This document shows, piece after piece, positions 16,845 through 59,299 of a DNA stretch of 64,000 nt. Below the pieces are notes generated by a model. That model saw nothing but the letters and a program-made list of their open reading frames with translations, searched no databases and had not been told where the DNA came from. Source of the stretch: Mobula hypostoma (taxonomy: Eukaryota). Numbering within the stretch: position 1 is the stretch's first letter; the number at the start of each line of letters is the position of its first letter. Location of the stretch: assembly GCF_963921235.1 (NCBI RefSeq), contig NC_086097.1, positions 119,352,001-119,416,000 of the forward strand. Direction: 5' to 3'. The position numbers and the translations under genes are program-made.

Positions 16845-17011
16845 TCAGCATTATAAACTTGTTTCCACCAAGCTTTTACATCTCAAATCAAAGGTGACCT
16901 TACAGAGGCAAATTTGATCTCACATTTAGCTATACGTACTTCATATCATCCATATTTCAGCATCTTGCACCTCGATTAAAATGAGCAATAAAATGGGTAC
17001 TGTAGTAAATG

Positions 17012-17238
17012 CTGGCAACACATTAAAAAATGCTTGAGGAACTCAACAGGCCAGGAAGCATCTATGGAAAAGAGTACAGTTGACATTTCGGCCCGAGACT
17101 CAAGTGTCCTGATGAAGGGTCTCGGCCCAAAGCATCCACTGTTTACTCTTTCCCATAGACGCTGCCTGGCCTGCTGAGTTCCTCCAGCATCGGGTGTGTG
17201 CTGCTTGGATTTCCAGCACCTGCAGATTTTCTCTTGTA
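17012..17238. mobile_element. Short Penelope-derived fold-back element
   Basis: Inverted arms meet at ~17101-17106 in the hammerhead region. TAGTAAATG at 17003-17011 and 17239-17247. Confidence 0.82.
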
Positions 17239-18054
17239 TAGTAAATGTTCCACGAGGTAGTACCCTCCATGTCTGTCCCAATCATTATAACCTATTATTG
17301 CGATAATGAAAAAGAGTTTGTTCTGGGTATAGGAAAGTGTGATTGCAGAATGAAAACCAGGAATAGAAAATTATTATCCCCATTCAAATCCAGGTCTGCT
17401 GGGGCCTGGAGGCTGCTAACAGCCTCTCCTGGGGGCTGAAGGCTGCAGACGACCTCTGCTGAGGGCTGGAGGCTGTAGACGTCTTCTCCTGAGGTTAAAG
17501 GACTGTGTTTGTGTGTGTGGAACAGGGCTTGTGTTGCTGTTGTTGCCTGGTATTTTAGTTTTGTTGTTCTTGTGTGTTGTTCTGCCGAGCAAGGTGGCCA
17601 TACTACATTGGTGCCTGTAGCACAGCTTTGTGTGCATCATGCACAAACATTCAGTCTCTTCCAAAAAGGAATAGACAATACTTACTCTGATTACACAGTC
17701 CAATTAGAATAATTAATAATACTTCATTTAAAATGGCACTTTAACACCAAAAGTAGTGGTAAAATTATTTTATATTTTCTGCTTTAAAGATAGTTATTAT
17801 ACTTCTGAGAAGACAAGAACTGAATGTGTGTGAATGAAAGCATTATATAATAAAAGTTTCTCACTTTAGGTTGGAATGGAAGCGAGTTTCTGCATTCCTT
17901 TATCTCAGCTATAAAACTGGACCCAGAAAAACTTTCTGTTCCACCAGTAGTAATGTGAAAGGCTACAAATTTCAATGTCACTACCATTCTTTAACTAAAT
18001 GAGTATTCAAAGCTAGAGCTGACCTTGCAAATGAAATAGGAGGATTGCCAAATA

Positions 18055-18591
18055 CCCTGTGGCCCATTTTATTAGGTTGTTCCTGTACCTAATAAAATGT
18101 TCATTGTCTTCTACTGCTGTAGCCCATCCACTTCAAGGTTCAACGTGTTGTGTTTTCAGAAATGCTCTTCTCACCACAGTTGTAACACACGGTTATTTGT
18201 GTTATTGCTGCCTTCCTGTCAGCTTGAATCAGTTTGACCATTCTGCTTTTACCTCTCTCTTCAAGGTATTTCTTCCAGTCACTGGAGGTTTTTTTTGTTT
18301 TTCACACCATGCTCTGTAAAGTTTAGAGATGGTTATGCATGAAAATTGCAGGAGATTAGCAGTCTCTGAGAGACTCAAACCTCCCCATCGGGCACCAACA
18401 ATCATTCTGTGGTCAAAGTCATGTATATCACATTTTTTCCCTATTCTGAAATTTGGTTTGAACAACACCTGAACTTGTTGATCATGCCTGCATGCCTTTA
18501 TGTATTGAGCTGCTGCCACATGCAGAGCTGATCATATATTTGAATTATCAACCAAGTGTATAGGTGTACTTAATGAAGAGGCCATTGAGTG
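18055..18591 (-). mobile_element. Tc1-derived MITE
   Basis: Degenerate TIRs; ORF remnant DFDHRMIVGARWGGLSLSETANLLQFS. Confidence 0.85.
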
Positions 18592-18694
18592 TATTTCGGT
18601 AATGAATTAAGTCATGTTAATATAGAATTTCCAGATATTACAGCAAATGTTAATTATTTTATGCTGTTGGGTAATTTAGCAATAATCTGGCTTT

Positions 18695-18995
18695 TGTGTT
18701 GGGACGTGGCCAAGTGGTTAAGGTGATCGTCTAGTGATTTGAAGGTTGCTAGTTTGAGCTTTGGCTGAGGCAGCGTGTGTGTCCTTGAGCAAGGCCACAC
18801 ATTGCTCTACGATGACACCGGTGCCAAGCTGTATGGGCCCTAATGCCCTTCCCTTGGACAACATCGGTGGCATGGAGAGGGGAGACTTGCAGCATGGGCA
18901 ACTGCTGGTCTTCCACACAACCTTGCCCAGGCCTGCGCCCTGGAAACCTTCCAAGGTGCAAATCCATGGTCTCTTGAGACTAACGGATGCCTATA
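18695..18995 (+). mobile_element. tRNA-derived SINE with 11-bp TSD
   Basis: A box TGGCCAAGTGG, B-box-like AGTTTGAGC, GTGTCCTTGAGCAAGGC central motif. AATCTGGCTTT at 18684-18694 and 18996-19006. Confidence 0.88.
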
Positions 18996-20879
18996 AATCT
19001 GGCTTTCAAAGAAGATTTATCCAAGTGTCAATTTTCATAGTTTCCTTTCTTTTCTAACTCAGTGTTCACAGAAATAGACAAAATCATCCTACGAGGTGCA
19101 TTGATAGACTGGGAAAGCTTCATTAAAATCATCAAAATTAATAAATATTGAATGCATTTGCAAAAGTCATGGAAATGCATCACCCTTGGAAATAACAGAT
19201 TTTATATACTAAACAATAGCTGGAACTCTCAGTAGGTGTTTGTTGTATTTTTACTGCTAACAATGTGTCAATCTCCATAGCAACAGGAACTCTATAAACT
19301 GTGGCCTCTGTTACTGTGTATAAATTTACAGTGTTAGCTAAAAAGAGTTTTCTGCAAGTCAAGGGGATCTTTTCATTGGCTTATCAAACAATTTTCCAAG
19401 TGTTGCGTTCCTGCAATTACTGCTTCACTTTCAGACAATATATCTTGTTAAGGCCGATTGCTGCCAGTATAAGCACAGGACTCATTTACCAAGATACAAA
19501 CCTATTGTATACATGTATTTTGTTTTGAAATGAAAGGAGACAATTTGGTGTACTGAGAACATGTCAGCCCTCAATAGAATCCCATCAATTCTGTTTCTGG
19601 CATGCTTCTCTGTAACAGCTTCTTCTCTTCCGCCATCAGATTGCTGAACAGTCCACGAACCCTTGAAACACTGCCTCGATATTTCTCTTTGGTGCTGCTT
19701 TTTTTTTTGTAATTTATAGTAACTTTTACACTTTGCACTGTGCTGCTGCTGCAAACAACAAATTTTATCCCATTTATCAGTGACGATAAACTCGACTGGG
19801 ATTCAGAACCATTCTCTCTCACGTGACCATTTACTGCACCCTCCCTCTGGTCTGATTTCCTTTCCTCCCTTCTAAATATCAGGCAATTTACAACTGACAA
19901 TTAACTTACCAACCAGCATGCTTATAGGATATGGGAGAGTTCGGAGCATCCAGCAAAACACACAAGGCTACAGAAGGAAAATGCAAACCCCTCACAAGCA
20001 AGAAGCTCTGAGGCAGCAAATCTGCATGCTGTGTGGTTATCGTATTCGCATTCTGATTTATTTATTCATCAGATGTACATTGAAACACAGAGTGAAATTT
20101 GTCATTTGCATTATCAACCAACACGTAAATCTGTGCTGGGGGCTGTCCACAAGAGTCAGCACACATACTGGCGCCAACATCTCATGCCCACAATGTTCAG
20201 CAGAGCAAGGCAGAACACAACTAGCAACACAACACAGCAACAGGACAGGCCTCCAGCAGACTTTTGGACTTGCAGACAAGGAGCCTCTGACCTTCATAGT
20301 TGACTCTCAGACTTGTAGAATCAGGGCTTTAGATATCAGGCTCTCATTTCCAGACTGATTGACCTTTGGTATTGAACATAGACTAGCCAACGAGAGGATT
20401 CTGAACTCCAGGCCTCGAACTCTGGACTCTTAGTAATGGTGTCATTAGTAGATTCCTGATAAACTCGGAGGGATATTGGCAATTTGATAACTGGTAATAG
20501 GTATATGTACTGAGATACTTGTAACATGTACCAAGATAGACTGAAAAGCTTTGTTTATGTACCGTGGGGTCAGATCATTCCATGTATTAGTACATCGAGA
20601 TGAGACAAAGGGAAAAAAATGCTTGTTACTCTGGATCCAATGCACCATAAAAATAGTGGAATAAACATAAAGAACGCAACAAAAAAGCAATAAACCATAA
20701 AATTTATATTTTATATAAATATAAAAGCAATACTATAAAACACAATGTTCAAGTGACTGAGTAATACAATCTTACATACATAGTATGAGTTTATATACAT
20801 TGCACAGACTGACTGGATGTACATAAAGTGACGCTAGGTGCAGGAGTATTTGTACATAAGTTAATTGACAGAAATTTAA

Positions 20880-22205
20880 AAAACAACAAAATGACTCTTG
20901 GCAAGATGAAGAAGTATTCTAAAGGCAGGATGACACAACTGTGGCTGACAAGGGAAGTCAAAGACAACATAAAAGCCAAAGAGAGGGCATATAATTGAGA
21001 AAAAATTATTGGGAAGTTAGAGGGTTGAGAAGCTTTTAAAAACCAACGGAAGGCAACTAAAAAGTCATAAGGAAGGAAATATGGAATACGATGGTAAGCT
21101 AGGCAATAACATTAAAGAGGCTACCAAAAATTTCTTCAGATATATAAAGGTGAAAAAAGAGGCCAGAGTAGATATCGGACCACTGAAAAATGATACTGGA
21201 GATGTAGTAATGGGGGACAAAAAATGGCGGATGAACTGAATAAATATTTTGCAGCAGCCTTCACTGTGGAAGAGACTAGCAGTGCGTCAGAAGTGCGAGA
21301 GTGTCCATTACTATGGAGAAGTTACTTGGGAAACCAAAAGGTCTGATGGTAGGTAAGTCACTTGGACCAGATGGTGTACACCCCAGGATAATGAAAGAGG
21401 TGGCTGGAGAGATTGTGGATGATCTTTCAAAAATCAGTTGATTCTGGTATAGTTCAGGAGGAATGGTAAATTGCAAATGTCACTCCACTTTTCAAGAAGG
21501 GAGAGAGGCAGAAGAAAGGAGGTTGCAGGCCAGTTAGTCTGAGCTCAGTAATTGAGAAGATGTTGGAGTCAATTGTTAAGGCTGTGGCTTCAGGCTACTT
21601 GGAGGGATATGATAAGATAGGGCAAAGTCAGCATGGTTTCTTTAAGGGAAAATCTTGCCTGACAAATTTGTTGGAATTCTTTGAAGAAATAACAAGCAGA
21701 ATAGACAAAATAGATCAGTGGATGTTGTGTGTTTGGATTTTCAGAAGGCTTTTGACGAGGTTCCACACATGAGGCTGCTCAACAAGTTAAGAGCTCGTGG
21801 TATTACAGGATGTGTAGAGCATTGGTTGATTGGCAGGAGACAAAGAACTAGAATAAAGGGCACCTTTTCTGTTTGCTGCCGGTGACTAGTGGTGTTCCAC
21901 AAGGGTCTGTGTTGGGACTGCTTCTTTTTATGTTATAGGTTAGTGATTTGGATGACAGATTTGATGGTTTTATGGTCAGGTTTGAGGACAATATGAAGAT
22001 ATGTGGAGAGGCAGGTAGTTTTGAGGAAGTAGAGAGGCTACAGAAGGACTTCCATAGATTAGGAGAATGGGAAAAGAAGTGGCAGGTTGAGTCAGTGGTG
22101 AGGATGGAAAATGCAATGTTAGCATTCATATAGAGGTGAGTAGAATACAAAAACAAGGATGTAATGTTAAGGTTTTATGAAGTACTGGTGAGGCCTCTCT
22201 TGGAA
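20880..22205 (+). mobile_element. Degenerate CR1 ORF2 fragment
   Basis: IGQSQHGFFKGKSCLTNLLEFFEEIT; RFEDNMKICG. Confidence 0.9.
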
Positions 22206-22540
22206 AATAGAATCTGATAGGAGAGTGTGGTAGAAGAGGAGAGTGGACCATGGAATAAAAGGAAAGGAAAAGATAAGGACAGGAACATCAGGGATGTGGG
22301 TGATGGGAAAACCAAAACTGTGGGGGAGGAGAACGTGAAGAGATGATATTATCTGGTGAAATATACATAAATAGTGACGATGGAAAATGGTTCCATAAAT
22401 TATAGAAATCAGTGTTCATGTAGTCAGGGTTGTACACTGCCAAAATGGAATATGAAGTGTTTTTCCACTTATCTGCATCTGAATATGGTGCTACAATTAC
22501 AGAGGAAGGGCAGAGCAAATAGACAATCAAATGCAAGCAA
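22205..22540 (-). mobile_element. Degenerate Penelope GIY-YIG C-terminal/3' fragment
   Basis: 22395-22510 resembles 11670-11780. Confidence 0.55.
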
Positions 22541-22596
22541 TATGACAAGATAGATGGAGAGATCAAGAGTTTATCTTTTTCTTTCAGGAGTCTTAT

Positions 22597-23486
22597 GTTC
22601 TATCACCAGACCTGTTCTCCCTGAACAGTGAAAACATTATGAGAACCATACAAGACCTACCTGGAATAGGTTTAGGAGGATACAATATCAACAACCTCCA
22701 CTATGCGGATGATACAGTACTGATAGCAAACAGTGAAGTAAATTTACAGAAACTAGTATCTACCATCAACACAGAGAGCGAAAGACTTAGCCTAACCTTA
22801 AACAAAAAGAAAACTGAAGTAATGGTAATAGCAAAGAAATCTGATAGCCCAAACTGTAGGATCGTATTGGGAAATTAAAACCTGAAACAAGTTCACAACT
22901 TCAAGTACCTTGGACCATGGGTAACATCTGATGGCAAATACGAAACAGACATAAAAGCAAAAATAGCAATGGCAAGAACAGCATTTACAGAAATGAGAAA
23001 CATCCTAACTGAACAAGAAAATAGCAATTGACATCTGCCTTAGAACTCTCAGCTGCTACATTCTTCCTATATTGATGTATGGCTGCGAGTCATGGACCAT
23101 CACAAATGCAATGGAAAAAAGAATCAATGTAGCAGAGATGTGGTTCCTCAGAAGAATGCTATGCATATCATATACAGACAGGATAACCAACGAAGAAGTT
23201 CTACAGAGAACGAAAACAAAACGTACATTACTTTAAAAAAACAGAAAACAGCAATCAAAATTCTTTGGACACATCATGCGAAGAGAGACATTAGAACATT
23301 TAGTTACAACTGGAAAGCTGGATAGAAAAAGAAGCAGAGGCAGACAGAGAATGAAAATGATAGATCGAATATCTTCATGGTTAGAAACAGGGGAGGCAAC
23401 AACTACAATTCAGAGGGTCAGGGACCGTGATGGATGGAGAGACATGATCGCCCACGCTGAACGGCAAGACTCCTGAATGAATGAAT
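22597..23486 (+). mobile_element. RTE-clade LINE, 5'-truncated, with TSD
   Basis: INNLHYADDTVLIA, FKYLG, MYGCESWT, GKLDRKRSRGRQ; (TGAA)3 tail; GTCTTAT at 22590-22596 and 23487-23493. Confidence 0.9.
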
Positions 23487-24188: not shown

Positions 24189-27146
24189 CATAGAACCATA
24201 GAACCATAGAAACTACAGCACAGAAAAAGGCCCTTTGGCCCTTCTTGGCTGTGCCGAAACATTTTCTGCCTAGTCCCACTGACCTGCACACGGACCATAT
24301 CCCACCATACACCTCCCATCCATGTATCTGTTCAATTTATTCTTAAATGTTAAAAAAGAACCCGCATTTACCACCTCGTCTGGCAGCTCATTCCATACTC
24401 CCACCACTCTCTGTGTGAAGAAGCCCCCCCACAATGTTCCCTTTAAACTTTTCCCCCCTCACCCTTAACCCATGTCCTCTGGTTTTTTTCTCCCCTTGCC
24501 TCAGTGGAAAAAGCCTGCTTGCATTCACTCTATCTATACCCATCATAATTTTATATACCTCTATCAAGTCTCCCCTCATTCTTCTACGCTCCAGGGAATA
24601 AAGTCCTAACCTATTCAACCTTTCTCTGTAACTGAGTTTCTCAAGTCCCGGCAACATTCTTGTAAACTTTCTCTGCACTCTTTCAACCTTATTTATATCC
24701 TTCCTGTAATTTGGTGACCAAAACTGAACACAATGCTCCAGATTCGGCCTCACCAATGCCTTATACAACCTCATCATAACATTCCAGCTCTTATACTCAA
24801 TACTTCAATTAATAAAGGCCAATGTACCAAAAGCTCTCTTTACGACCCTATCTACCTGTGACGACACTTTTAGGGAATTTTGTATCTGTATTCCCAGATC
24901 CCTCTGTTCCACTGCACTCCTCAGTGCCTTACCATTAACCCTGTATGTTCTACTTTGGTTTGTCCTTCCAACGTGCAATACCTCACACTTGTCAGTATTA
25001 AACTCCATCTGCCATTTTTCAGCCCATTTTTCCAGCTGGTCCAAGACCCTCTGCAGGCTCTGAAAACCTTCCTCACTGTCTACTACACCTCCAATCTTTG
25101 TATCATCAGCAAACTTTCTGATCCAATTTACCACATTATCATCCAGATCATTGATATAGATGACAAATAACAATGGACCCAGCACTGATCTCTGTGGCAC
25201 ACCACTAGTCACAGGCCTCCACTCAGAGAAGTAATTCTCTACCACCACTCTCTGGCTTCTTCCATCAAGCCAATGTCTAATCCAATTTACCACCTCTCCA
25301 TGTATACCTAGCGACTGAATTTTCCTAACTAACCTCCCATGCGGGACCTTGTCAAAGGCCTTACTGAAGTCCATGTAGACAATATCCACTGCCTTCCCTT
25401 CATCCACTTTCCTGGTAACCTCCTCGAAAAACTCCGACAGATTGGTCAAACATGACCTACCACGTACAAAGCCATGTTGACTCTCCCTAATAAGCCCCTG
25501 TCTATCCAAATGCTTGTAGATTCTGTCTCTTAGTACTCCCTCCAATAACTTACCTACTACCGATGTTAAACTCACCGGCCTATAATTTCCCGGATTACTT
25601 TTCGATCCTTTTTTAAACAATGGAACAACATGAACCACTCTCCAATCTTCCGGCACTTCACCCGTAGACAGCGACATTTTAAATATTTCTGCCAGGGCCC
25701 CCGCAACTTCAATACTAGTCTCCTTCAAGGTCCGAGGGAACACTCTGTCAGGTCCTGGGGATTTATCCACTTTAATTTTCCTCAAGACAGCAAGCACCTC
25801 CTCCTTTTCAATCTGTACAGTTTCCATGGTCTCACTACTTGATTCCCTCAATTCCATAGATTTCATGCCAGCTTCCTTAGTAAATACAGACGCAAAAAAC
25901 CTATTCACGATCTCCCCCATTTCCTTTGGTTCCGCACAAAGTCAACCACTCTGATCTTCAAGAGGACCAATTTTATCCCTTACAATCCTTTTGCTCTTAA
26001 TATACTTGTAAAAGCTCTTTGGATTATCCTTCACTTTGACTGCCAAGGCAACCTCATGTCTTCTTTTAGCCCTCCTGATTTCTTTCTTTAGTATTTTCTT
26101 GCACTTCTTATACTCCTCAAGCACCTGATTTACCCCCTGTTTCCTATACATTTCATACAACTCCCTCTTCTTCTTTATCAGAGTTGCAATATCCCTTGAG
26201 AACCAAGGTTCCTTATTCCTATTCAATTTGCCTTTAATCCTGACAGGAACATACAAACTCTGCACTCTCAAAATTTCCCCTTTGAAGGCTTCCCACCTAC
26301 CAATCACATCTTTGCCAGAGAACAACCTGTCCCAATCCACGCTTTTTAGATCCTTTCTCATTTCTTCAAATTTGGCCTTCTTCCAGTTCAGAACCTCAAC
26401 GCTAGGACCAGATCTATCCTTGTCCATGATCAAATTGAAACTAATGGTGTTATGATCACTGGAACCAAAGTGCTCCCCTACACAGATTTCCGTCACTTGT
26501 CCTAACTCGTTTCCTAACAGGAGATCCAATATTGCATCCCCTCTAGTTGGTCCCTCTATATATTGATTTAGAAAACTTTCCTGAACACATTTTACAAACT
26601 CTAAATCATCTAGACCCCTAACAGTATGGGAGTCCCAATCAATGTATTTGAAATTAAAATTCCCTACCACCACAACTTTATGTTTCCTGCAGTTGCCTGC
26701 TATCTCTCTGCAGATTTGCTCTTCTAAGTCTCATTGACTATTGGGTGGTCTGTAATACAATCCCACCAATGTGGCCATACCTTTCCTGTTTCTCAGCTCC
26801 ACCCATAAGGACTCAGTAGACAAGCCCTCTAATCTGTCCTGCCTGAGCACTGCTGTAATATTTTCCCTAACAAGCAATGCTACTCCCCCACCTTTCATTC
26901 CTCTGCCTCGATCACATTTGAAACATCGGAACCCTGGAATATTAAGCTGCCAGTCCTGCCCCTCCTGTAGCCAAGTTTCACTAATTTCTATAACGTCATA
27001 ATTCCACGTGTCAATCCACGCCCTCAACTCATCCGCCTTCCCCACAATACTCCTAGCATTGAAATATATACACCTCAGAAGATTTTTACCACCACTCACA
27101 ACCTTTCCATCGGCGGATTTGCTTAAACTTTTAACATCATTTATTT
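24189..27146 (-). mobile_element. Young CR1 LINE covering all of ORF2, inserted into an older CR1 (remnants 24115-24188 and 27147-27322)
   Basis: (CCATAGAA)n tail at 24189. Flanking remnants join colinearly (FQES...DDWKIANVTPLFKKG). Confidence 0.95.
24270..27099 (-). pseudogene. CR1 ORF2 (APE endonuclease + RT), disrupted by 3 in-frame TGA and one late frameshift
   Basis: Four listed ORFs share one frame: [42 protein letters not shown]. Frameshift in the G-run near 24430. Confidence 0.93.
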
Positions 27147-27747
27147 TCTAGTGATTCTTGAAAGATCATTACCGGTGCCTCCACAATCTCTTTTGCTGCT
27201 TCTTTCAGAACCCTGGGGTGTAAACCGTCTAGTCCGGGTGATTTACCTACCTGACTTTTCAGCTTTCCAAGCACTTCCTCCTTAGTTATAGCAGTAACAA
27301 TCACTTCTACTCCCTGGCACTCAAAAGGGAAATATTTGAGGGGGAGCTCTTTCACTCAGTGGGGGGAGGGGGGTCCATGTGTGCAATGAGCTGCCGGTGG
27401 AAGTGGGTTTTTAAGAGAGATTTGGAGAGGTACCCGGGTGGGGGGGGTGGGGCTTAAGCGCTGTGGTCCAGCTGCAGGTCAGTGGGACTAAGAAGAGTAA
27501 TAGTTTGGTATGAACTATATGGGTCGACGTTCTTGCTTTCTTGCTGTAGTGCTCTATGACTCTATTATTCTATGAACCCAAGCTTCTGTTCCTTGCTTGA
27601 AGTAAGTTAGGCAGCAATATCCCATAACACGTGGACTCAATTACCTTATGTTCATGGCATTATTAGGCCAGCAAAACAAGCCTTCTTGTTCGGTTTCACT
27701 TCGGATAACCCTCACATTTGAGCAGCTTTGGATTCCTTATCTAAGAA

Positions 27748-35425: not shown

Positions 35426-35742
35426 TATATTTGATTATTAGTGGTAGTTATAGTATTATATGTTCACTGAAGCTGGCTTTTAACACCTTGCTTACTATCA
35501 TGGTCAAGACCTGGATAGAGGCCATTCTGTTTCATGGAATTATAATGGAGCTGATGCTTTAAATTATTAGAAATCACAGGGCTGCTGGCAGTCTGTGTCA
35601 TTACAAGAGTTGGAATGAAAACCAAACACGTATGACAGGTCAGATCACATATGATCCAACCTGTTATTTTGTTTCTCTATCTACATTTGCTGCCTGACCT
35701 GCTGAGTGTTTCCATTATTTTTTGTTCTAGTGCATGTTCAAG

Positions 35743-35950
35743 AGATTCTGCATATGTCGGAAGTCCAGGGTAACACATAGAAAATGCTGGAGGAATTCAG
35801 CAGGCCAGGCAGCATCCATTGAAATGAAAAAACAGACAATATTTCAGAACAAGACCCTCCAACAGTTTTGTCCTGAAACATTGACTGTTGATTCCCCTCC
35901 ACTGATGCTGCCTGACCTGCTGAGTTCCTGTGGTATTCTCTGGGTGTTGA
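35743..35950. mobile_element. Degenerate Penelope-derived fold-back element
   Basis: Inverted arms meet at ~35862 in hammerhead remnants. CATGTTCAAG at 35733-35742 and 35951-35960. Confidence 0.75.
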
Positions 35951-37129
35951 CATGTTCAAGCAATATTTTTGATCAATATTTTTGTGATAGGATAGGGGAA
36001 GAAAGATTTTCCCCACAAGAGAATGCATCATCTCATTGTCATAGAAATTATGCATTATATTAAGTATCTTGAGGATCTTCAACGCCTAATTAGTTTTTTT
36101 TGGATAGTTAAGATCAATAGTATTAACACAGGATTCTGAGAAAAAGGTGCTAAACTTGCAGCATTAATCAATCTGTACACTTTCAACATTTTCTATTTTC
36201 TAACAAGCACAGTAGGTGGCCTTTGGATGATGTTAGCGCTCTGCATCAACAGTGTTCCTCCCTCTGCCAATATTATTGTGACAAGAAGGGACTGGAATCA
36301 GGAGAAACAATCTTAGGAGTTGCAGCTTGACATAAGTTTGATTAGTAACATGCAGGTCAGCAGGCTCAGTGTAATTATAGAGCAGTTTGATAAAGCTCTA
36401 CTTTGACTTGAGCCATCGACCTGCTAGTATGTGCTTTCCAGCTCCCCTTTTCCATTAACTATGAAGCAATTAATGGTAGGCAGCTGCTTACGTTCAAAGT
36501 ATGTGTGTATTGATACCAGGTTTAATTATGTGGAACCTCTGTAACAAGTTACATGCTTGCCGCAAAGAGAAAATGTTTATGGGTTTAAAACGGGAGGGTT
36601 TATTTGATTCATCTTGTTGTAAACTAAGCATACAGAGTGGAAGCAGTTCTGACTGAGTTAATTACACATGTTATTATTGAGATTGCTTCTGGCACAGCAC
36701 ACTTCCTCTGTAGAATCTGATGCATGTTCCTTTCAATAAACTGCCCAACGCTGAAACTGAACTTGCTGATGATACAAGAATCAAGGCATGCTCTCAAAGT
36801 GTTCCACATGAGATCACAGGGGATTATTGGTACCAAATTGTACCAAAACTCATTTCAGTATGATCAGCAGGAAAATAAAGAAATGAAACAGGGATTTGAG
36901 GTTTTGTTGAGAATTAGTCTATATTGTAGGTAGCATAACAACTGCAGTGATCTGTATCTTGTAAGGCTGGGGCTGTTTGTCTTTGAAAACTGCAAGATCT
37001 TAGAACTGGGGAAGACTTTTTCATTTCAGCGGCAAACTAATCAATTCTGGCATGGAAAAAGAGTAGTAAATTTTCATAAGTTGTGAGACAAATTGTATTT
37101 CCCACCATTAGCCTTTCAAAAAAGCAATA

Positions 37130-44790: not shown

Positions 44791-46694
44791 TTTCCTAGTA
44801 CAATAACATGGATTTTTGACCTCAGAATCTGTTAAGTTAGCTTATTAATACTGTCAGTTTCAACCCATTATATCTGGACCTTTATTGAATTTCCTTCTTT
44901 GACACAGGTTCAACATTTTGGAACTTCCCATCTAACAGCACGGTTATCACCTTCATTATGATTTACTGCTTCAGATTTTTTAGTTTGTTTTAATTATAGA
45001 TTAGATGGCAAATATCATAATCACACATATGCTTTAATGATGGTATAAATTGCATTTGATAATTCCTTTCAAATTCATGCAGTAAAGTGGACAATTATCA
45101 TAAAGTTTTATTATCAAGGCAATCTGAAATTTGTTACATTTGGTTGGAACCAGAAATCTGAAGTGCATCATAATCATCAGGGAACTTTGTTTATATGTGT
45201 TACTTAATTTCAAATGAATTCACCTCCAGCATAAGGTACTATCATCTCATTCCCATCCCCCAGAGTGCCAAATTTCTTGGCTTTTCCCTTCTCTGTCTTC
45301 CAGTTTATCAGCTGTAAATTTATTGAAAATGTCATTTCGTACCAAAGTAAGTTCAGTCCTATATCATCCATATTTGGATCTTTATCACATATTCTTTTAT
45401 TTTCTGTATTAAAAAAGGAAATCATGCATGATCATGGGATTACCATCTCACATTATTAATGTCCTGTTGCTGATTTAAAGTAGAAACGTTATTGTTCTGT
45501 TTCTATTAGAAGTAGAAATTATTCCATAGATACAACCGTAGATAATATTATGCATGATTGTGCAAAGCCTGAAGATTTTCTCACTAAATTTCCTTCTCTT
45601 AGGACTACTTTAACCAGGGTGTTGATCCATTAAAGTTAACTTCATTAATATCTATTTAACTAAGAGGATAATAATTTGACCTAAGTATTTTAAATAATTT
45701 CTGGCCTATATATATATATATATATATTTCAATTTAACTACAGCCTGACAAAATGTACTTAAAATCCAAACAACTTGGCATCCTGGTTGTTCCCAGTTAC
45801 TTACATTAATTTATTTCTGTACAACACAATAATTTGCAATATTTGCTTTGTTTAATGGCATGGATTTTTCTCAGCTTGCCTGCTCTATGTTTGAGATACT
45901 AAGAAGAATAAACTACATGGTAGAAGGCCGCTACCTCAAATCTTGCATCAAGAACAGAGTGATTTTCACTTTTCTCCCTCCATCCCATCTCCCATTCGCC
46001 CCTCCTTTTCTAAACTACCTCATTACATCTAAGATGTACATTTGCTCATTAAATAGAATGTAGCACATAGGAGGAGTGCAGAACAGAAACAGGCACTTTG
46101 TCCCTCAATGTTGTGCTAAGCTAATTAAACTGGTAATTAAAACATATGGAACTATTCTTCTCTGTGAACATAAGCTCACATGCCTCCATTCTCTATATAT
46201 TTGGATACCTATCTAAGAACCTCTTAAACCCCTCTATTCTATTTGCTTACACTACCACCCCCATCAATGCATTCCAGGCACCCACTAATATGTGCAAGAA
46301 ACTTGCACCACACATCTCTTTTGAAGTTTACACCTCTCATATGAAATACATGCCTTTTAGTATTAGACATTTCAACCCTGAGGAAAAATAAAATCCAGCT
46401 AGCCAGAGTTATATAAAGCTACAACATAACTGCTTCACTCTTGAACTCAATGCCTGATCTAATAAAGGCTCGCATGCTCTTCATCCTGCTGATGAAGGAT
46501 CTCCTTTGCTTTTTGAGAAGGTCACAGTTTAACACTGCCTCTTAAACAGATTTCTGTCCTTATGATTTCTGTCCTAAATGACCAACCATTTTCTCAAGGC
46601 ACTGGAATTCTTTCTGTTCCTCAAAATATTCATTAACCATCCTCATATTCTCATATGAATAGAATTGAGATACATCCTCAAATATCAGTTCCAT

Positions 46695-48620
46695 TCTATT
46701 CCCCTTGGTTCAGTCCCTTCTCATCTACATCCACAACATTCCTCATGCCCTCGATCTCCTCAGTGCCTTTCCATTCCCTGCCCTGACCGTCTTATCTTCA
46801 CTATGGATGTTCAGTGCCTATACACTTCTGTCCTCCATCAGGAAGGCCTCAAAGCCCTCCACTTCTTCCTTGACAAAATGCCAATCAGTCTCCCTCCATC
46901 AGAAACTTCCTCCATCTGGCAGAACTAGTCCTCACCATGAGCAGTTGTCCTTCGGCCCCTCTCACTTTCTCCGGACTCAGGGGGTAGCCACAGGCACTCA
47001 AATGGGCCCAGACTATTCTTACGTCTTTGGTGGTTATGTAGAACAGTCTACGTTTAAAGCCTCCCCCGCATATACTCCCCAACTCTTCCTCTGCTATGTT
47101 AACTGCGCTGGTGCTGCTTCATGCTGAACTCATCAATTTCATTAACTTTGCCTCTCACTTCCACACTGCCCTTAAATTCACTTGGGCCATCTCTGACACC
47201 TCCTTCCTCTTTCTTGATCTTTGTGACCTCTGGAGACAAACTGTCAACCAACATCTTTTCTAAAACTACTGATTCCCCTGTTTATTTTGACTATACCTCT
47301 TCCCACCCTATCTCCTATAAAAATATATTCCCTTTTCTCATTTTCTTTGACTCCACTACATCCCAGGATGTGACTTTCCATTCCATGACATCAAAGATTA
47401 CCTCCTTTTTTAAAGAACAAGGGTTCCCTCCCTCTACTGTTGATGCTGTCCTCACCTGCATCTCCTCCATTTCCCATTCATCCATACTCACCCCATTCTC
47501 CCACCATTGTAATAGTGATAGAGTCCTTCTTGTCCTTACCTACCATCCCATCAGCCTCTGCATCCAACTCATTCTCCTCTGTAACTACCACCATCTCCAA
47601 AGGGATCCTACGATAAACCTATCTGTACCTCTTGCCCCACCCTCTGTTTTCTGCAGGGATTGCTCCCTCCATAATTCCCTTGCTCATTTGGCCCTCCCCT
47701 CTAATCTCCTTCCAGGCACTCATTCCTGCAAGTGGCTTAAGTGGCAGACTTGCCCATACACCTCCTCTCTCACCTCCATTCAGGACCCCAAACAGTCCTT
47801 CCAGGTGAGGCAACACTTCACTTGTGAGTCTGTTGGGGTCATCTATTGCATCCGGTGCTCGGTGTAGCCTCCTCTACATCGGTGAAACCCGACGCAGATT
47901 GGGGGACCGCTTCGTCAAGCACCTCTACTCCGTCCGCCACAACAAACAGGATCTCCCGGTAGCCACCCACTTCAACTCTGCTTCCCATTCCCATTCAGAT
48001 ATGTCCATACATGGCCTCCTCTACTGCCATGATGAGGCTAAACTTAGGTTGGAGGAGCAACACCTCATATACCGTCTAGGTAGTCTCCAGCCCCTTGGTA
48101 TGAACATAGAATTCTCCAACTTCCAGTAATTCCCTTCCCCTCCCTTCCTCTATCCGTATTTCACTCTACCCCTCCCCCAGCTCCCTCATGGTTTCACCTC
48201 CTTCTTCTACTACGCATTGTTTTCAGGGCTATGACGTCAATGCTTCCCCTCCCCCATCCCTTTGTCTTTCAAATTACTGGTCTTTCAACTGAAGCTATAA
48301 GCATTCTTCAAATCCTTCCCCATCTTTCATTCTTCAGTCCTGACGAAGGGTTCCAACCCGAAACGTCGACTCATCATTTCTAACTGATTCTGCCCGACCT
48401 GCTGAGTTCATCCAGTGTACTGAAAGTGTTGCTTTTGGCTTCACCTATCACCTTGTCACTAACCTCCTTCCTCTCTCCCCAACATTGTATTCTGGCATTG
48501 ATCCCTTTCCTTCTCAGTCCTCCTCGTGAAGGCTCTTGTCCTGAAAAGTTGACTGTTTACTCTTTTCCATATAAGCTGCTTAACCTGCTGAATTCCTCCA
48601 GTGTTTTGAGCATGTTCCAT
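46695..48620 (+). mobile_element. Penelope-like element(s): degenerate RT plus better-preserved GIY-YIG and two successive pLTR ends
   Basis: IFTMDVQCLYTS, GVATGTQMGP, LVLTYHP, YCIRC..CSLLYIGETRRRLGDRF...LEEQHLIYRLGSLQP. Confidence 0.9.
48336..48371 (+). ncRNA. Minimal type-I hammerhead ribozyme motif (intact, variant stem II)
   Basis: AGTC-CTGACGA-A-GGGT(TCCA)ACCC-GAAA-CGTC/GACT. Confidence 0.85.
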
Positions 48621-48814
48621 TGACAATCTCACCTCTTTCTTTAAATTGGTATCATCCCATTTCGAATTATGCCTCGTAAAGGTTCAAGGTACAATGTAAT
48701 TTCAGTCAGGTAGGAATGCATACAGCAATCTGCCAATTCTGCTGATGATAGAAGAACAGGTAAGGCTGTCCATAAACACAAGAAGTTTTGCAGATGCAAG
48801 AGTATACCATAAGT

Positions 48815-50543: not shown

Positions 50544-50647
50544 CTGCTGGAAATGCACACACAAAATGCTAGGGGAACTCAGCAAATCAGGCAGTATCTG
50601 CTGGAAGGCATAAACAGTCAACATTTCGAGCCAAGACCCTTCATCAG
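50544..50647 (-). mobile_element. Penelope pLTR fragment beginning at the hammerhead core
   Basis: Minus CTGATGAAGGGTCTTGGCTCGAAATGTTGACTG (50647-50615). Confidence 0.75.
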
Positions 50648-52963
50648 TGCAGATGCCTTGTTATTTAAATTAATCGTTACCTTTTGATTAACATTGTAAC
50701 ACTGCTAAAGGATCTCAGTAAGAGTAAGCATTCAAACAACAATATTTTCCGCAATATAGTTTATTCCACAAAGAAGCTATGTAACGATCTTGTATTAACA
50801 ACTGAAGTGATGGGTTATATTGTCTTGTAAAATTCCTCAGCAAATGTGAAGCTGTGTTGTAGTCCAGTTGGAAGTTTGTAATTTAGGCTCATCAAATAAC
50901 ATAATTATGAGTGCAGTATCACACCTCATTAAGAAGAATTTTTAAAAACGTGGCGTTTTTCTACTATGTGATCAACCTATCTCCCATCCACAGGCATGGG
51001 TTTATGAAGTGATCTGCTCCTGGTCCAACTTCATAGTTGCACAGACAGTAGTGGCTCTGCCTCTCAGTTCCAGTGACTCTGCTCCACCCTGACCCTCAAT
51101 ACTGAGAGTGCAGAGTGTGTTCTCTCTGTCTGCAATTTGTGTGAGTTTCATCTAGGTGCTCCGGTTCCCTCTGATGCCTCAATTCCTATGTCAGTAGGTT
51201 ACAGCGCAGCAAGAAGTGCTTCTGCACCATTCAATTACACTTTTGAGACCAATTAACTTACTAACCTGTACACGGTCAAAGTGAGAACACAGGATCTCCT
51301 TACAGACAGCAGCGGGAACTGAACCCAAGTCAGCGATGCTATAATCACGTAGTGTTGGGTAGTAGCATCTGGAAGTAGTTCATGTAAATGGGAGAATTAG
51401 ATAGAATTAGAACAAATGGGCAAGCATTCATTCAATCATTAAATTATTTGATATAAAATATTAAATAAAATATCCATATAAATTAATCCAAATCTTTAAC
51501 ATGAACTTAAAAGGCTGAAGGACCTATTCCATCCAGGATGACGTTCTTCTTTTTCATATCTCTATTTAATGTTATTAAATCATATTAAATTGATCCAATA
51601 TGACTTCCTATTTTAACTCAATATGACACTTAGCAATTAATTTACATCATTTATCATCTTGACCTTTATTAGAGAAGCTTTCCTTTCCCCGTGTGAATTG
51701 AAATAGATTTAATAAAGGGTGATTTTCCTTCACCCTGGAACACCTTGATAACATTTGCCATTTGCTCTACCATTTGCTATTCTTCCATTCTGTCCTTATT
51801 ATTTATAATAAATTGCCATGTTTGCTTATCTGTAGTCATTCTGCCTGCAAGGATCCAGCATAACCCAAGTGCATTCATTTTCTCATTTCAGCTTCCACCT
51901 GTCTCAGACTGTGTTGGAACTTCAACCTCTCTCACATGCATTATGATTAAAACTATTGGAATAAAGGACAGATGTAATTTTCTAACTCCGTCCACATCTA
52001 GACAAATCCTTGGAGTTGTTTCAGAATTTTATGATTCTATTTTCTCCAAATTTTCTTTTCCAATAACAGAATACAGTAACATTTATTTTAATTGCTTTTA
52101 CAATCACAAGTTTACATTTCCCTGCTTCTTTTCCTGTCTCTAGGTGGATTTTTATTTCCACTGAAGTCAAGAGAGCTGCTGTCATCTATTTTAGTCTGCC
52201 TCACAAGTCAAGATCTACTCCTTGTGTTTTTCCACGTATTGAATTCATGTATTGATTCTCTGTTGCAAGGCAATTTACTCGCCTGTAATGTCCACTGAAT
52301 CCTTAATAGATTTCATTACCTTTCCTGTCATCCAGCTACTCTTCTTCATCCAGTTTTCCTCCTCGTGGCCACTTCTGCAGCAGTTAATGTTTCGACTTGG
52401 TACAAGGTAGTGATCACAATACTTCTTTCTTCAGCACTAGTGTTCTCTTCCTCGAGAAGATGTCTCAGAGTTTGCTGGAAAATATCAGAATTTCTCCTTG
52501 TTGACGCTGATACTTCCCTGAGCAGTCGTCTGCAGCTCTGGAAGTTTCACACAAACGCTAAAAGCCCAGGGGTGCACTTAAATTTTAACCACCAAGTTCT
52601 GATGCCACTGAAGTCTGGCCCCAGTGAAGCTCCAGCAATTTCAACCTCTTGTGCAGGGATATCGCTCAAAAAATTTGTCCCACTTTGAGCTTAGGACCAG
52701 AGCAGCTACCCTATTGATATTAATGGGAAATTTCAACTGTGCAAATCGATTTTTAAATCTAAATGTTTAAGTAATAATCTTATATTATTAATAACATGTC
52801 TCTGGTTTTTTCTAACTTTATACTCTAATTCTTAGAGACACTTGATTTCTCATGTTCTTTTGACAGCTAATTAAGGAAAGTGATTTTAATGTTTATCAAA
52901 AACTTTTCTCACCTGCCAGATCACAGACATAATGATACAGTCCACCTAAAGTGCAGATAGATA

Positions 52964-53320: not shown

Positions 53321-55060
53321 TATACGGTACCAGCGGCCTGGAGCCTTACCTGGCGCAAGTCAAACTTACCACATAGCATAACAAGTGGAGACCCTCCGAA
53401 ACGGCGGTGAGCCTTGCCCTCGCACTGGTGGGGGATGCCTAGTGGCCCCTCCTCGACCCTACACTGAATGAGCAGCATAACTCCTGGGCCCTCGTCACAG
53501 CACTGGAGTGTAGTTTCGAGCAGAAGCCATTGGTGGAAACAATGATGAAATAATTGTGCAGCAGACAGCGTCATAAGGTAGGAAACATGGGGTGAATGCA
53601 GCACATCACCGCCACTGTGCGCGGCATGGCTACCTCCATTGGCCTCCCACGGCCCAGGAAGAGCTTGCCCTCCACGCCTTTGTAAGGGCGCAATGCCAGA
53701 GTGCCTTTGGTAGCATGTGCGCCTGACATCAGCATTATCGCTGGGCCTCGGAGAGGGCTGAAGAAGCTTTAGCCCCTCAAGGTGTTCCAGCGTCACCCCG
53801 CATGCTGCGAGCTAGAGTTTGTGTCACCGAGACAGAGGAGGAAACATTCAAGGAGAAGCCTGTCTCGCAGGTCCTACCAGTGTCAAGCCGGCACCACTGT
53901 ATGCCATAGAGTAATTTCTGCTACCGGTGAGGCGAGGTGAGCCATGTAGCCCAGGACTACCCCACACCAACACCTCACCAGAGCTCTGTGCTGCCATTGG
54001 GAAGCACTGAGTGGGCATCACTGTCTGAGAACTCCAGCAGAATCCCTCCATTGTTGCCTCTCCGGGTGGGCCGTTCTTGTGAAGAACAAGGCTTATACGT
54101 GGACAGCATGGGGGAAGGCATCAGATGCTATACATTGGTAGATACAGGGTTGGCTTTCACTATCATCTCTCTGGGTGTCCTCCCCAGCACAGACCAGCCA
54201 TCTCCGCCAGGCTGAACAATGACGGCAGTCCACCTGGCTATGGTCACCGGCGACCGTGCGACGATGCGAGAGGGCAGAGGAGGCTGCGCATCGCAGTGGG
54301 GAAAAGCACAGTGGAGCAGGAGGCGTGGCTCGCTGACATCCAAGCGTCCTGCTTCATTGGCTTGGACCTGCTGTCTCGCTGGGGAGCCTGTGTGGATGCG
54401 TCGAGGGCAACTCTCCACCTCGGCACTGAATCCGTGGCTCTCCGGCAGGGCACTTCCAGGATGGGGACCCGGCGGGTGCACCAACAATCACCACTGGTCT
54501 CCCAGCAGCCCGCCACGGTGTACCACACCCCATAGTCACCCAATGCAACACAGCAGATCCAGGGGTAAGTGGCAGGGGCAGCACTTCAGCTGGCAACCAG
54601 TGGCGAGGTAGACCTCCTCACCATTGACCAGCAGCTGAACAGTGAACAGGTGAGCGATCCTGTGCTGGCCCAGTGAAGGTATGGGTAAACGTGGGACAGC
54701 GGCCGGGGTGGACAGAGGTCTCTGCCCTGGATCCAAAGATCAAACCCTCTACTTTCATGGGGCTTGCTGGAGGAGAGCGATGGGTTGTTGTTCTGGCGCT
54801 GGCAGTCTTCTGAAAGCGACAGACATCTCCTGCAGCTTGTGGTTCCCCGGGGGCTTCACGTGACAGTGTTGTAGCCAGTGCATGGGCTGGTTGGGGCCAG
54901 CCATTTTGGGGTCACAAATACGTAAGATAAGCTGTGCGAAAGTTGCTATTGGCTGGATAGAGACAGGACTTGGAGCTGTTCGTGCTCTGTTGAAAGGCTA
55001 GAGGGGCTGGGCCGCCGGTCTAGTGCGTTAATGCAGCAGGACATGGGGACAGGATGCCAG
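53321..55060 (+). mobile_element. Decayed Gypsy internal region (gag, Zn knuckle, protease, integrase Zn-binding) lacking RT/RNase H
   Basis: gag-like NKWRPSETAVSLALALVGDA; knuckle CYR*GEVSHVAQD (~53920); protease LVDTG (~54141); integrase-like LQLVVP..H....SHFGV...CYW (~54830-54950). Confidence 0.75.
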
Positions 55061-55404
55061 TATAGGTCTAATGAGGGTGAGGCCAAGCTGACAGAGAAGC
55101 TGACCTGAAAATTCCTGTCTTCTATCTGGCTATCCTGGCTACAGGACACAATTATGCAAATATTTACCTCATAACACTATATTCGTAACTCTACTTTATA
55201 AATCATGGGCATTCAGAGAACACGCAGCACAATTCGCAGCCCTTCCTATGATTATCAATAGCCAGATAACAAAGTCGGAATATGAAGAGGATTACTGCCT
55301 TGAAAAATAAAAGTTAATCTTCACATGAAGATAATGATGAGAGGGATTGCATTTTGTTGAAAGGGCAGAGGATTCTGACTACACACTGTGCATTATGTGC
55401 CAGT

Positions 55405-58400
55405 CAAAGTTGAAAGTAAATTTATTATCAAAGTACATACAGTATTTGTCCCCATTTATAACCCTGAGATTCATTTGAATGTGGGCATTCACAGTAAATG
55501 CAACAAACATAGTAGAACCAATGAAAGACTGCCCCAACAGGACAGACAAACAACCAATGTGTAAAAGACAACATATGATGCAAATACTAAAAGAAAATAA
55601 ATAATAAGTAAATAAACAATAAATGTAGAGAACTTGAGATGAAGAATCCTTGAAAATGAGTCCATTCTTTGTGGGACTATTTCAGTGATGGGGTCAATGA
55701 AGCTGAGTGAAGTTATCCACTTTAGTTTAAGAGGCTGATGGTTGAGGGGTATTAACCATTCCTGAATCTAGTTGTGTGGGTTTTAAAGGAACCGTGCCTT
55801 TTTCCTAATGAGAGAGCATAGCCTGGTTAGTGAGTGTTATTGATGACTGATACTACTTCCTTGTGACAGTGCTTCTTGTGGATGTGATTATTTGTAGGGA
55901 GGGCTTTATCTCTGATGAACTGGGCTGTATCCACTACATTTTGTAGGTTTTTACATTCAAGGGCATTGATACAACCAGTCCATATATTCTCCAGAATCAG
56001 GATCAGGTTTATCATCACGACATGTGTCACGAAATTTGTTAGCTTAGCAGCAGCAGTTCAATGCAATACATAATATAGAAGAAAAGAAAAATAAATCAAT
56101 CAATCAATCCATCAATCAATTACAGTATATATATATATTGAATAAATTATAAATCATGCAAAAAACAGAAATAATATATATTTAAAAAGTGAGGTAGTGT
56201 CCATGGGTTCAATGTCCATTTAGGAATTGGATGTCAGAGGGGAAGAAGCTGTTCCTGAATCGCTGAGTGTGTGCCTTCAGGCTTCTGTACCTCTTACCTG
56301 AAGGTAACAATGAGAAAAGGGAAGGCCCTGGGTTCTCGAAGTCCTTAATAATGGACACTGCCTTTCTGAGACACCACTCCTTGAAGATGCCCTGGGTACT
56401 TTGTAGGCTACTACCCAAGATGGAGCCGACTAAATTTACAACACTCTGCAGCTTCTTTCAGTCCTGTGCAGTAACTACACCCCCCTCCCCTCCACCATAC
56501 CAGACAGTGATGCAGCCTGTCAGAATGCTCTCCACGATACATCTATAGAAGTTTTTGAGTGTATTTGTTGACATACCAAATCTCTTCAAACTCCTAATGA
56601 AGTATGGGCACTGCCTTGCCTTCCTTCTAATTGCATTGGTATGTCGGGACCAGGTTAGGTCCTCAAAGATCTTGACACCCAGGAACTTGAAACTGCTCAC
56701 TCTCTCCACTTCTGATCCCTCTATGAGGATTGGTATGTGTTCTTTTGTCTTACTCTTCCTGAAGTCCACAATCAGCTCTTTCGTCTTACTGATGTTGAGT
56801 GTCAGGTTGTTGCTGCGACACCACTCCACTAATTGGCATATCTCGCTCCTGTACGCCCTCTCGTCACCACCTGAGATTCTACCAAAAATGGTTGTATCAT
56901 CAGCAAATTTATTGATGGTTCTCGAGCTATGACTAGCCATACAGTCAGGGGTATAGAGAGAGTAGAGCAGTGGGCTACGCACACACCCCTGAGGTGCACA
57001 AGTGTTGATTGTCAGCGAGGAGGAGATATTATCACCCTCCACACAGATTGTGGTCTTCCGGTTAGGAAGTCAGGACCCAATTGCAGAGGGAGATACAGAG
57101 CCCCAGGTTCTGTAAACTTCTCAATCAGGATTGTGGAAATGACGGTATTAAATGCTGAGCTATAGTTGATGAACAGCATCCTGACATAGGTGTTTGTGCT
57201 ATCCAGGTGGTCTAAAGCCATGTGAAGAGCCATTGAGAATGCGTCTGTTGTTGACTCATTGTGGCGATAGGCAAATTGTGGTGGGTCCAGGTCCTTGCTG
57301 AGGCAGGAGTTCAGTCTAGACATGACCAACCTCTCAAAGCATTTTGTCACTGTAGATGTGAGTGCTGCCAGGAAATAGTCATCAAGGCAGATCACATTAT
57401 TTTTCTTAGTACTTGTATAACTATCGCCTTTTTGTAGTAAGTGGCAACTTCTACCTGTAGCAGTGAGTGATTGAAAAGATCCTTGAATGCTTCTGCCAGT
57501 TAGTTGGTATAGGTTTTCAGATCCTTACCAAGTGCTCCATAGGGACCTTCCAACTTGCGAATGTTCACCCTCTTTAAAGACAGCCTAACATCGGCCTCTG
57601 AGACAGAGATCATAGGGTCATCAGGTGCAGCAGGGATCTTCAGAGCTGCAGTTATATTCTCCCTTTCAAAGCAGGCATAGAAGGCGTTGAGTTCATGCGG
57701 TGTTGAAATATCACTGCCATTCATGCTATCGAGTTTCACTTTGTGGGAAGTACAAACCCCACCAAAGTTGTCCTTCATCGTTTGTCGTACACCTGATGTC
57801 GCCTCCAACCTCAGTGGAAATTCCACCACTTATCTATAAAAGTTCGTCAAAATTTTAGCCGACGTACCAAATCTTCTCAGACTTGTAAGAAAGTAAAGAC
57901 ACTGTCATGCCTTCTCCATAATAGTACTTATTATGACAGATCCTCTGACACGATAGCACCGAGGAGTAAAAGGTTCAGCCCTCTTCACCTCTGATCTTCC
58001 AATGAGGACTGGCTCGTGGGCCTCCAGTTCCCTCCTCCTGAAGTCAACAATCAGCTTCTTCATGTTGCTGACAGTGAGTGAGAGGCTGTTGTTGTGACAC
58101 CACTCAGCAAGATTTTCAATATCCCTCCTGTATGCTGATTTGTCACCTCCTTTGATTTGGCCAGTGACGGTAGTGTCATCAGCAAACTTGAACATGGCAT
58201 TGGAGCTATGCTTAGCCACGCAGTCATAAGTGAAAAGTGAGTAGAGCAGGATACTAAGCACACAAACTTAAGGTACACCTGTACTGATGCAGATAAAGGA
58301 GGAGATTTTGTTGTCAACCTGAACTGACTGGAGTCTGCAAGTGAGGAAGTCAAGGATCCAATTGCGCAAATAGGTATTGACGCCAAGGCCAAAGCCTTGA

Positions 58401-58480
58401 AGTTTATTGATTAGTTTGGAAGGGATGATAGTATTGAATACAGAGCTGTAGTCAATAAAGAGCATCCTGATGTATGTATC
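55405..58480 (-). mobile_element. Two nested Rex1/Babar LINEs (inner 55993-57820; outer 55405-55992 plus 57821-58480)
   Basis: Two separate RT cores (KFADDTT at ~56900 and ~58180) and two 3' tails (55405; AGAATCAGGATCAGG at 55993); the outer halves join colinearly. Confidence 0.85.
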
Positions 58481-58798
58481 ATGATGCACTTCATTGTATG
58501 CATCAGTATTAAGCTGAGCCCTCAGCTACCTGGTTACCACAAAACTCTCCAATGTACCAAGCACTGCTTTGAATAATTATGAAAGATAAGCAGTGAATGG
58601 ATATATAATAGGATCCATGAAAGCCTCAAAGTTGTAGAAACACAGTAGCTATGGGTAGTAGTGGCTTTCTTCGATTGAGGCAATTTCTATCATCGGAAAA
58701 TGGAAGTGCTATCTAGAGTTCCGAAACAAAAATCGATATAACTACTCAACCGACAAATCTAGAAAAAATGATAAATATGCAAATATAATGCCAACGTA

Positions 58799-59025
58799 GT
58801 GATACATGCATAATACTGGAGGAACTCAGCAATTCAGGCAGCATCTATGGAGTGGAATATACGGTCGATGTTTCAGGCTGAGACTCTTCATCTGGACTGG
58901 AGGAGTCTCGGCCTGAAACATCAACAGCTTACTCCTTTCCATGGATACTGCTTGAACTGCTGAGTTCCTCTAGCATTATGTACGTGTCACACTGGATATC
59001 CAGTATCTGTAGAATCTCTCGTGTT
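58799..59025. mobile_element. Penelope-derived fold-back element
   Basis: Inverted arms meet at ~58900 beside hammerhead remnants. Imperfect 15-bp TSD TATAATGCCAACGTA (58784-58798) / TACAAAGCCAACATA (59026-59040). Confidence 0.8.
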
Positions 59026-59299
59026 TACAAAGCCAACATAACAGCTTTCTTTTGGCATGGGGAGTTATGAAATCCTCTTAAAGTAATGGCTGTCATTGGT
59101 GCTGGCATTATGGATAACAAGCACCATGATTTATAATCCATTCTCAGTCACAATTACTTTGTTGCTGCAATTCACATGGGCACTTCAGTTGAGCAAATAT
59201 CCTCTGGGAAAAAGTTAACTTCTGGGCTGACTCTGAGCTTCAGTGCATTGAGCCTGTTGCAGAAAGAATAGTGAGGGCTAATTACTAGTACGTTTGTAA

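Follow-up and report, generated by a model that had tools for sequence, protein, structure and literature searches.

Closest described systems

The typical insertion of a Penelope-like element (PLE) has an inverted pseudo-long terminal repeat (pLTR), a 31-bp tail and a target-site duplication (TSD) of 8–10 bp (Arkhipova 2013, PMC3846280). Adjacent inverted, 5′-truncated copies with a tail on one side are described as general in PLEs (Craig 2021, PMC8557442; Goubert 2022), and the length of the inverted repeats differs from copy to copy (Schostak 2008, PMC2377424). The subject here is a set of fold-back insertions in a 64-kb stretch of Mobula hypostoma DNA (contig NC_086097.1, positions 119,352,001–119,416,000 of the forward strand), which as a whole is called the window and is numbered from its first letter. 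Three elements of 208–227 bp, one of 644 bp and one old, decayed element are present. The short ones, called minis, most plausibly form the short extreme of the known series of inverted pLTR, tail and TSD; this layout, which an earlier note on the same DNA could not place as catalogued or not, is already published for PLEs. Each element is held, with moderate confidence, to be an independent, dead-on-arrival integration product of an endonuclease-positive (EN+) PLE. That the minis were made de novo, and are not a family descended from a master copy, is very probable.

Like the inverted-pLTR insertions of EN+ PLEs described in those accounts, the elements consist of a head-to-head, 5′-truncated copy with a tail of 30–40 bp at one end and a TSD of 8–10 bp or more. 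Unlike the insertions described there, these have both arms reduced to the pLTR end without an intervening open reading frame (ORF), a turn that tends to fall at the hammerhead, and a very high abundance of pLTR arms. A literature search, with Repbase Reports, Dfam, subscription journals and bioRxiv supplements beyond its reach, yielded no account of this minimal form in sharks or rays.

Two priming systems are comparable. Poseidon of Anolis (PAc) cuts and extends both strands in vitro; its reverse transcriptase (RT) starts at two sites, one at either edge of the tail, and works mainly on uncleaved RNA, and a dimer is predicted (Frangieh 2024, PMC11167929). PAc belongs to another PLE clade, and the available part of that work reports no reconstitution of inverted products. 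By analogy, two starts of the PAc type would correspond to the two arms of a mini. In twin or dual priming of L1, both nicks prime cDNA and leave inverted pieces within one TSD, with little or no inner microhomology (Meyer 2010, PMC2837659). The L1 pieces, as described, come from different parts of the RNA, whereas in a mini one and the same 3′ end is the source of both arms, which are shifted against each other by the tail.

Description of the fold-back elements

All five elements share one layout, in which a tail-less inverted pLTR arm stands head to head with a tailed arm. A tail of about 35 nt is present on a single arm only (5/5). The arms match 10281–10584, the 3′ end (pLTR) of a copy with an RT/GIY-YIG ORF remnant. 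The 5′ limits of the arms are numbered from the C of CTGA (C3) in the hammerhead. For the tail-less arm of mini 3, the consensus upstream of the hammerhead was taken from loose contig ends.

17012–17238: mini 1, whole, 227 bp.
17003–17011: left TSD of mini 1, TAGTAAATG; right copy 17239–17247, 9/9 match.
17012–17099, minus strand: tail-less inverted pLTR arm of mini 1; arm proper 17016–17099, with 17012–17015 unassigned; 5′ limit +8 to +10, in helix II.
17100–17105: central junction of mini 1; 4–6 unassigned bases, no microhomology.
17106–17238, plus strand: tailed arm of mini 1; start −3; CTGATGA intact but GAAA box mutated; tail 17204–17238, about 35 nt.
35743–35950: mini 2, whole, 208 bp; tail at left.
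35733–35742: left TSD of mini 2, CATGTTCAAG; right copy 35951–35960, 10/10 match.
35743–35865, minus strand: tailed arm of mini 2, tail leftmost; 5′ limit C3 (0); core decayed.
35865–35950, plus strand: tail-less arm of mini 2; 5′ limit +10; base 35865 common to both arms.
58799–59025: mini 3, whole, 227 bp.
58784–58798: left TSD of mini 3; right copy 59026–59040, 12/15 match.
58799–58901, minus strand: tail-less arm of mini 3; spans the entire hammerhead to about −7.
58900–59025, plus strand: tailed arm of mini 3; start +5, without CTGA box; overlaps the other arm by 2 nt (58900–58901).
16201–16844: long element, whole, 644 bp.
16187–16200: left TSD of the long element, TCAGCATTATAAAC; right copy 16845–16858, 14/14 match.
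16201–16524, minus strand: tail-less arm of the long element; extends to about −220; young subfamily.
16529–16844, plus strand: tailed arm of the long element, from −188; 16525–16528 unassigned.
7939–8140, plus strand: 7940 element, an old fold-back whose pLTR is of an older type; tail-less arm 7939–8033 (minus; 5′ limit at or beyond −2), tailed arm 8035–8140 (plus; start near +19).

A profile trained on 11 arms of the window, both arms of the 7940 element among them, recovers 18 pLTR arms in the window. Ten of the 18 stand in five head-to-head pairs, and the minis, counted with the 7940 element, hold 8. The 7940 element is matched at 7939–8033 (minus) and 8035–8138 (plus). The three minis fold with z-scores of −10.4, −14.8 and −8.2, equalled by 0 of 200 shuffles, and their two arms diverge by 20–25%. 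Sub-threshold Rfam matches to microRNAs (miRNAs) fall at 35687–35815 and 58844–58945.

Random boundary pairs score as well as the observed TSD in 2, 1, 12 and 0 cases of 3966 (minis 1, 2, 3 and the long element). The TSD of mini 3 is weaker under a stricter score (P ~0.045). For the 7940 element no TSD was detected; random pairs did equally well in 712 and 1881 of 3966 cases. The coordinates, arm layout and lengths that the earlier note gave for the three minis and the long element are borne out, as are its TSDs of 9–15 bp in these four. The fifth, older member that it suspected is a real two-armed fold-back, without the expected TSD.

An older tail-less pLTR arm at 35671–35732 lies directly left of the TSD of mini 2 and forms a second inverted pair with 35781–35814; mini 2 was thus inserted beside an older copy.

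Junctions and stop sites

The 26-nt words across the five junctions are all unique in the window (5/5), with up to 6 mismatches allowed. One base is shared between arms in mini 2 and two in mini 3; mini 1 and the long element carry 3–6 unassigned bases. Twelve of 16 arms without an attached ORF stop between −8 and about +32, and 4 of 16 extend further. Solo arms at 5839, 27750, 35671 and 50545 also stop there, so the hotspot needs no partner arm. Tail-less arms of both young and old subfamilies break at +10 to +12, in the loop of helix II (5839, 17099, 27831, 35865). With unique junctions and solo arms stopping at the same place, the common size is therefore attributed to a stop hotspot at the hammerhead and not to common descent.

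Depth in other sequence data was read from four public runs (X1, X5, X9 and X13; 74,479–154,493 contigs each), compared with 16560–17420 at 80% likeness. At junction base 17100 of mini 1 it is 0.6–1.5% of that at 17081 and 17132, and 0.06–0.2% of that at 17056 and 17160. Since the minis hold 8 of the 18 arms in the window, one common junction would give a far higher junction depth. Contigs that come loose at 17106 run on as ordinary C/T-rich pLTR and not as the mini 1 junction. Among the matches listed, five pieces bridge that junction, each with 5–10 gaps.

In a tree of 14 arms, the arms of minis 2 and 3 group by locus (84/70 and 91/87) and not by side. Within the minis (17016–17203, 35772–35949, 58800–58990) the arms differ in a block just 3′ of the ribozyme, and the same variants occur in other copies; the arms within each mini nonetheless have other private letters in common. 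It is possible that the arms come from RNAs of different subfamilies, with two templates and later conversion between arms.

Several points weigh against independent origin by dual priming. The junction depth of mini 1 amounts to about 100–460 single-copy equivalents, a summed contig depth that is not a copy number, and there may be a small sub-family (of the order of 100 copies) or a junction that recurs; minis 1 and 2 have the +10 break in common. Junctions were compared at base level in the five elements of the window, and run depth covers one junction, that of mini 1. Most of the joints listed (15 of 1510) are jumps from one similar arm of the reference to another, and the count of joints is complete in one of the four runs. 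The tree is weak, neither mini pair being starred, and approximately unbiased (AU) tests fail to reject clades by side (p 0.078, 0.138). Among the fold-backs, great length is confined to the single young one and the four old ones are all short; later central deletion would fit this as well, and could also blur the argument from arm lengths given below. The in vitro data on two starts come from a Poseidon element, of another PLE clade.

Hammerhead and retrozyme features

16713–16748, plus strand: minimal type-I hammerhead motif, intact, with CTGACGA, bulged A, helix II and GAAAC-GTC; predicted cut after 16744.

Minimal PLE hammerheads have a bulged base before helix II, a G-C closing pair and a palindromic ACGU in place of helix III; in Schistosoma, hammerhead pairs occur on opposite strands, 100–700 bp apart (Cervera and De la Pena 2014, PMC4209133). 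The motif at 16713–16748 has the features described there. The minis differ from that description in that each has a complete core in one arm only, mutated in all three and masked by the fold-back. Helices I and II, which have computed pairing probabilities of 0.87–0.98 when the young arm stands alone, drop to 0.00 in the fold-backs of the long element and mini 1. Rfam returned no hammerhead among 21 sub-threshold matches in the window, the intact motif at 16713–16748 included.

Non-LTR retrozymes are direct tandem units with a complete ribozyme in each, and are present in the single chondrichthyan sampled (Li 2026, bioRxiv 10.64898/2026.07.22.740005). The minis resemble them, as described, in being short, non-coding and pLTR-derived with a type-I hammerhead, and differ in being inverted with at most one ribozyme per strand. 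A direct ribozyme tandem was not found in the minis, whose arms are inverted with no more than one core per strand. No end falls at the predicted cleavage site (+27/+28) in any of the 8 mini arms, the 7940 element included, all of which start at about −7 to +19. Because no mini arm begins there, the template RNA appears to have been uncleaved at the predicted hammerhead cut, in agreement with the uncleaved main template of Frangieh 2024. That ribozyme cleavage produces the turn was considered and rejected, as no mini arm begins at +28.

The solo arm at 50545–50656 (minus strand) reads, in sense order, as a 9-nt distal tail piece (GCATCTGCA), the hammerhead start through to the tail-less end, and then a piece of the proximal tail. 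Such an order suggests circular permutation or a very small partial tandem; the join lies at C3 and not at the cleavage site, and the arm follows directly on the 3′ end of a long interspersed nuclear element (LINE).

Proposed mechanism

Read on the top strand, the order is TSD, antisense arm from the tail-less boundary, junction, sense arm with tail, and TSD; two nicks, each priming cDNA on sense RNA, would give that order. Under the dual-priming mechanism, considered probable as a whole, GIY-YIG would nick both target strands 9–15 nt apart, which would yield the TSD. Each 3′-OH would prime cDNA on uncleaved sense pLTR RNA, a distal start giving the tailed arm and a start about 35 nt upstream the tail-less arm. 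The template may be a single RNA, two RNAs, or two pLTRs within a tandem RNA. Both reverse transcriptions would often break off within the hammerhead fold or next to it, 70–105 nt from the tail-less end, giving the size of 210–230 bp. The stops themselves do cluster; stalling at the hammerhead would be their putative cause. The two cDNA ends may then be end-joined; the junctions show an overlap of 0–3 nt or a few extra bases. The product would mask its own ribozyme within an 85-bp stem and would normally not be recopied.

The tail-less arm extends further 5′ than the tailed arm in 3/5 (mini 3, the 7940 element and the long element), which, barring later deletions, argues against snap-back from a tailed cDNA in those three. 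Every pair is one of a tailed and a tail-less arm (5/5), an outcome with a chance of 1 in 32 if ends were chosen freely at even odds, and this hints that the two RT starts are coupled.

A wider proposal is speculative and unlikely as a whole. The hammerhead fold, or a PLE protein bound to it, would be a built-in stop and pairing site for two coupled reverse transcriptions, and all two-armed insertions would be obligately tailed plus tail-less. Ray genomes would then hold of the order of 100,000 RNA hairpins of 85 bp, a few of them re-mobilised as a hairpin class distinct from retrozymes.

Alternative origins

De novo origin by self-priming, already proposed in print (Arkhipova 2013, PMC3846280), would have one cDNA or antisense RNA fold back at the hammerhead stem and copy itself. 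Arms would then be identical at birth, which fits their pairing by locus; the turns do fall in a stem-rich region, and minis 1 and 2 show the needed geometry, with the tailed arm longer. The other three elements do not fit this geometry unless deletions followed, and the junctions of mini 1 and the long element carry extra bases instead of overlaps, so this origin is doubtful. Shortening after insertion, with the minis starting as longer inverted insertions like 16201–16844 and then losing their centre, is improbable. Long inverted repeats are prone to deletion, and length goes with youth here, the long element being younger than the four short ones; but two solo arms that are young and belong to the same clade, 5839 and 27750, already end at +10 and +12 without a partner, and deletion offers no reason for stopping at the hammerhead.

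Retrozyme-like amplification was one of two readings in the earlier note. It would mean that a single non-autonomous hairpin family, or several, are transcribed and inserted anew in trans by PLE RT/GIY-YIG. The narrow size range, the +10 break common to minis 1 and 2, the junction depth in single-copy equivalents, the single-base deletion at 17100 in 3–7 contigs of each run and the AU tests that leave grouping by side standing all speak for it. They are met by five different junctions in five elements, a junction depth of about 1% of arm depth, the loss of pairing in helices I and II on folding back, and the lack of any end at the predicted cut. In addition, the tail-less arm begins beside the TSD at the genome-wide tail-less boundary (loose ends 17027), which a copied read-through hairpin RNA would not be expected to reproduce. 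Since direct tandems and ends at the cleavage site are both missing and the ribozyme helices hardly pair in the fold-back, the amplifying family is not upheld and has little likelihood. The "recurrent family" of the earlier note stands as one design found five times in the window, and falls as a family with a shared junction; the check on junction sharing that it proposed gave no common junction in the window, and the depth at the mini 1 junction leaves room for a sub-family of about 100 copies. Its other reading, a stereotyped product of Penelope integration, agrees with the unique junctions, the solo arms at the same hotspot and the low junction depth. A miniature inverted-repeat transposable element (MITE) has symmetric terminal inverted repeats, a fixed short TSD and a DNA-transposon partner. 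Size and terminal inverted arms recall a MITE, or an assembly fold-back artefact. The arms, however, derive from the 3′ end of a PLE with an RT/GIY-YIG ORF, the ends are asymmetric and the TSD varies in length (9, 10, 14 and 15 bp), which confirms the earlier view of a MITE-like look without MITE identity. An artefact is countered by boundaries of mini 1 in several organisms and by arms that differ by 20–25%. Either possibility is very remote.

Age and presence in other sequence data

Boundaries of mini 1 were seen in contigs of organisms A, B and C (left) and G (right); as they recur in several organisms, mini 1 is old and is no assembly artefact. It is present in all four organisms compared, and an empty allele was not seen among them. 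At its own locus, no low-difference contig piece covers the centre of mini 1 among the matches listed (X1 pieces 16826–17054 and 17210–17420), and the centre is therefore known from the window sequence. In a single contig of organism C (contig 27) the alignment begins exactly at 16845, and the 84 preceding letters are unlike the tail; as 16845 is the first base of the right TSD, this may mark an empty site of the long element. Depth at 16736 is 6e4 to 8e5 times the single-copy flank depth in the runs, which is not a true copy number. Upstream of the hammerhead, depth is 5–7 fold lower at 16676–16704 than at 16705–16733; this step is confounded by private changes of the reference at 16693–16703 and is not used as proof. 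Motif scans gave 0 matches in viral contigs, metagenome contigs and prokaryote genomes, as expected for vertebrate DNA.

Penelope-like copies in the window and neighbouring features

10281–13446, minus strand: broken Penelope-like copy; ORF remnant 13446–11614, then a 958-bp insert, then pLTR 10655–10281 (tail-less end).
46669–48622, plus strand: second, older Penelope-like ORF remnant with partial tandem; ORF 46669–48144; direct pLTR/hammerhead copies 48337–48442 and 48523–48622.

The copy at 10281–13446 belongs to the same young clade as the long element. RT-like motifs and a CX4CxxC linker were recognised in it by eye. Its GIY-YIG remnant gave a weak Pfam match (E 0.0071, short of the family cut-off) in 1 of 7 frames scanned, and the 7 gave no match to the RT family. 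The linker CKRNKCHTC, in frame 11566–12198, fits the pattern CX2-5CxxC ahead of GIY-YIG, which is a mark of Neptune and Nematis (Craig 2021, PMC8557442). The element behind the fold-backs is taken to be an EN+ PLE, probably of Neptune type. The closest named proteins to the Penelope-like frame are predictions from Mobula hypostoma and Hypanus sabinus (7 matches among 482 candidates, 64–84% identity). Several named Hypanus and Mobula host proteins (kinase-domain, mucin-2 and chitinase-domain isoforms) contain this piece of the Penelope ORF, probably through gene-model contamination or exonisation. The pair at 48337–48622 is the sole same-strand ribozyme pair in the window; its first core is intact and its second decayed.

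The insert at 10656–11613 is 958 bp long, with TG...CA ends and a 4-bp TSD (CTAT). It is solo-LTR-like and lies within a microsatellite of the Penelope 3′ untranslated region; one of its ends matches 63354–63498. Long, nearly open LINE frames with endonuclease and RT-like sequence occupy 24388–27147 (minus strand); this LINE is presumably CR1-like.

Significance

How PLEs form inverted pLTRs is called undefined in published accounts (Craig 2021, PMC8557442; Arkhipova 2013, PMC3846280). The minis are the simplest products of that step and are seemingly very numerous in rays, so that one assembly-wide count could decide between dual priming and snap-back. The same count could show the hammerhead acting as an RT stop rather than a cutter. 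Minis are open to mis-annotation as MITEs or miRNA hairpins, and may be a large source of double-stranded RNA when transcribed. As a class of element they are ordinary; their value is that the origin of inverted pLTRs is made testable by counting.

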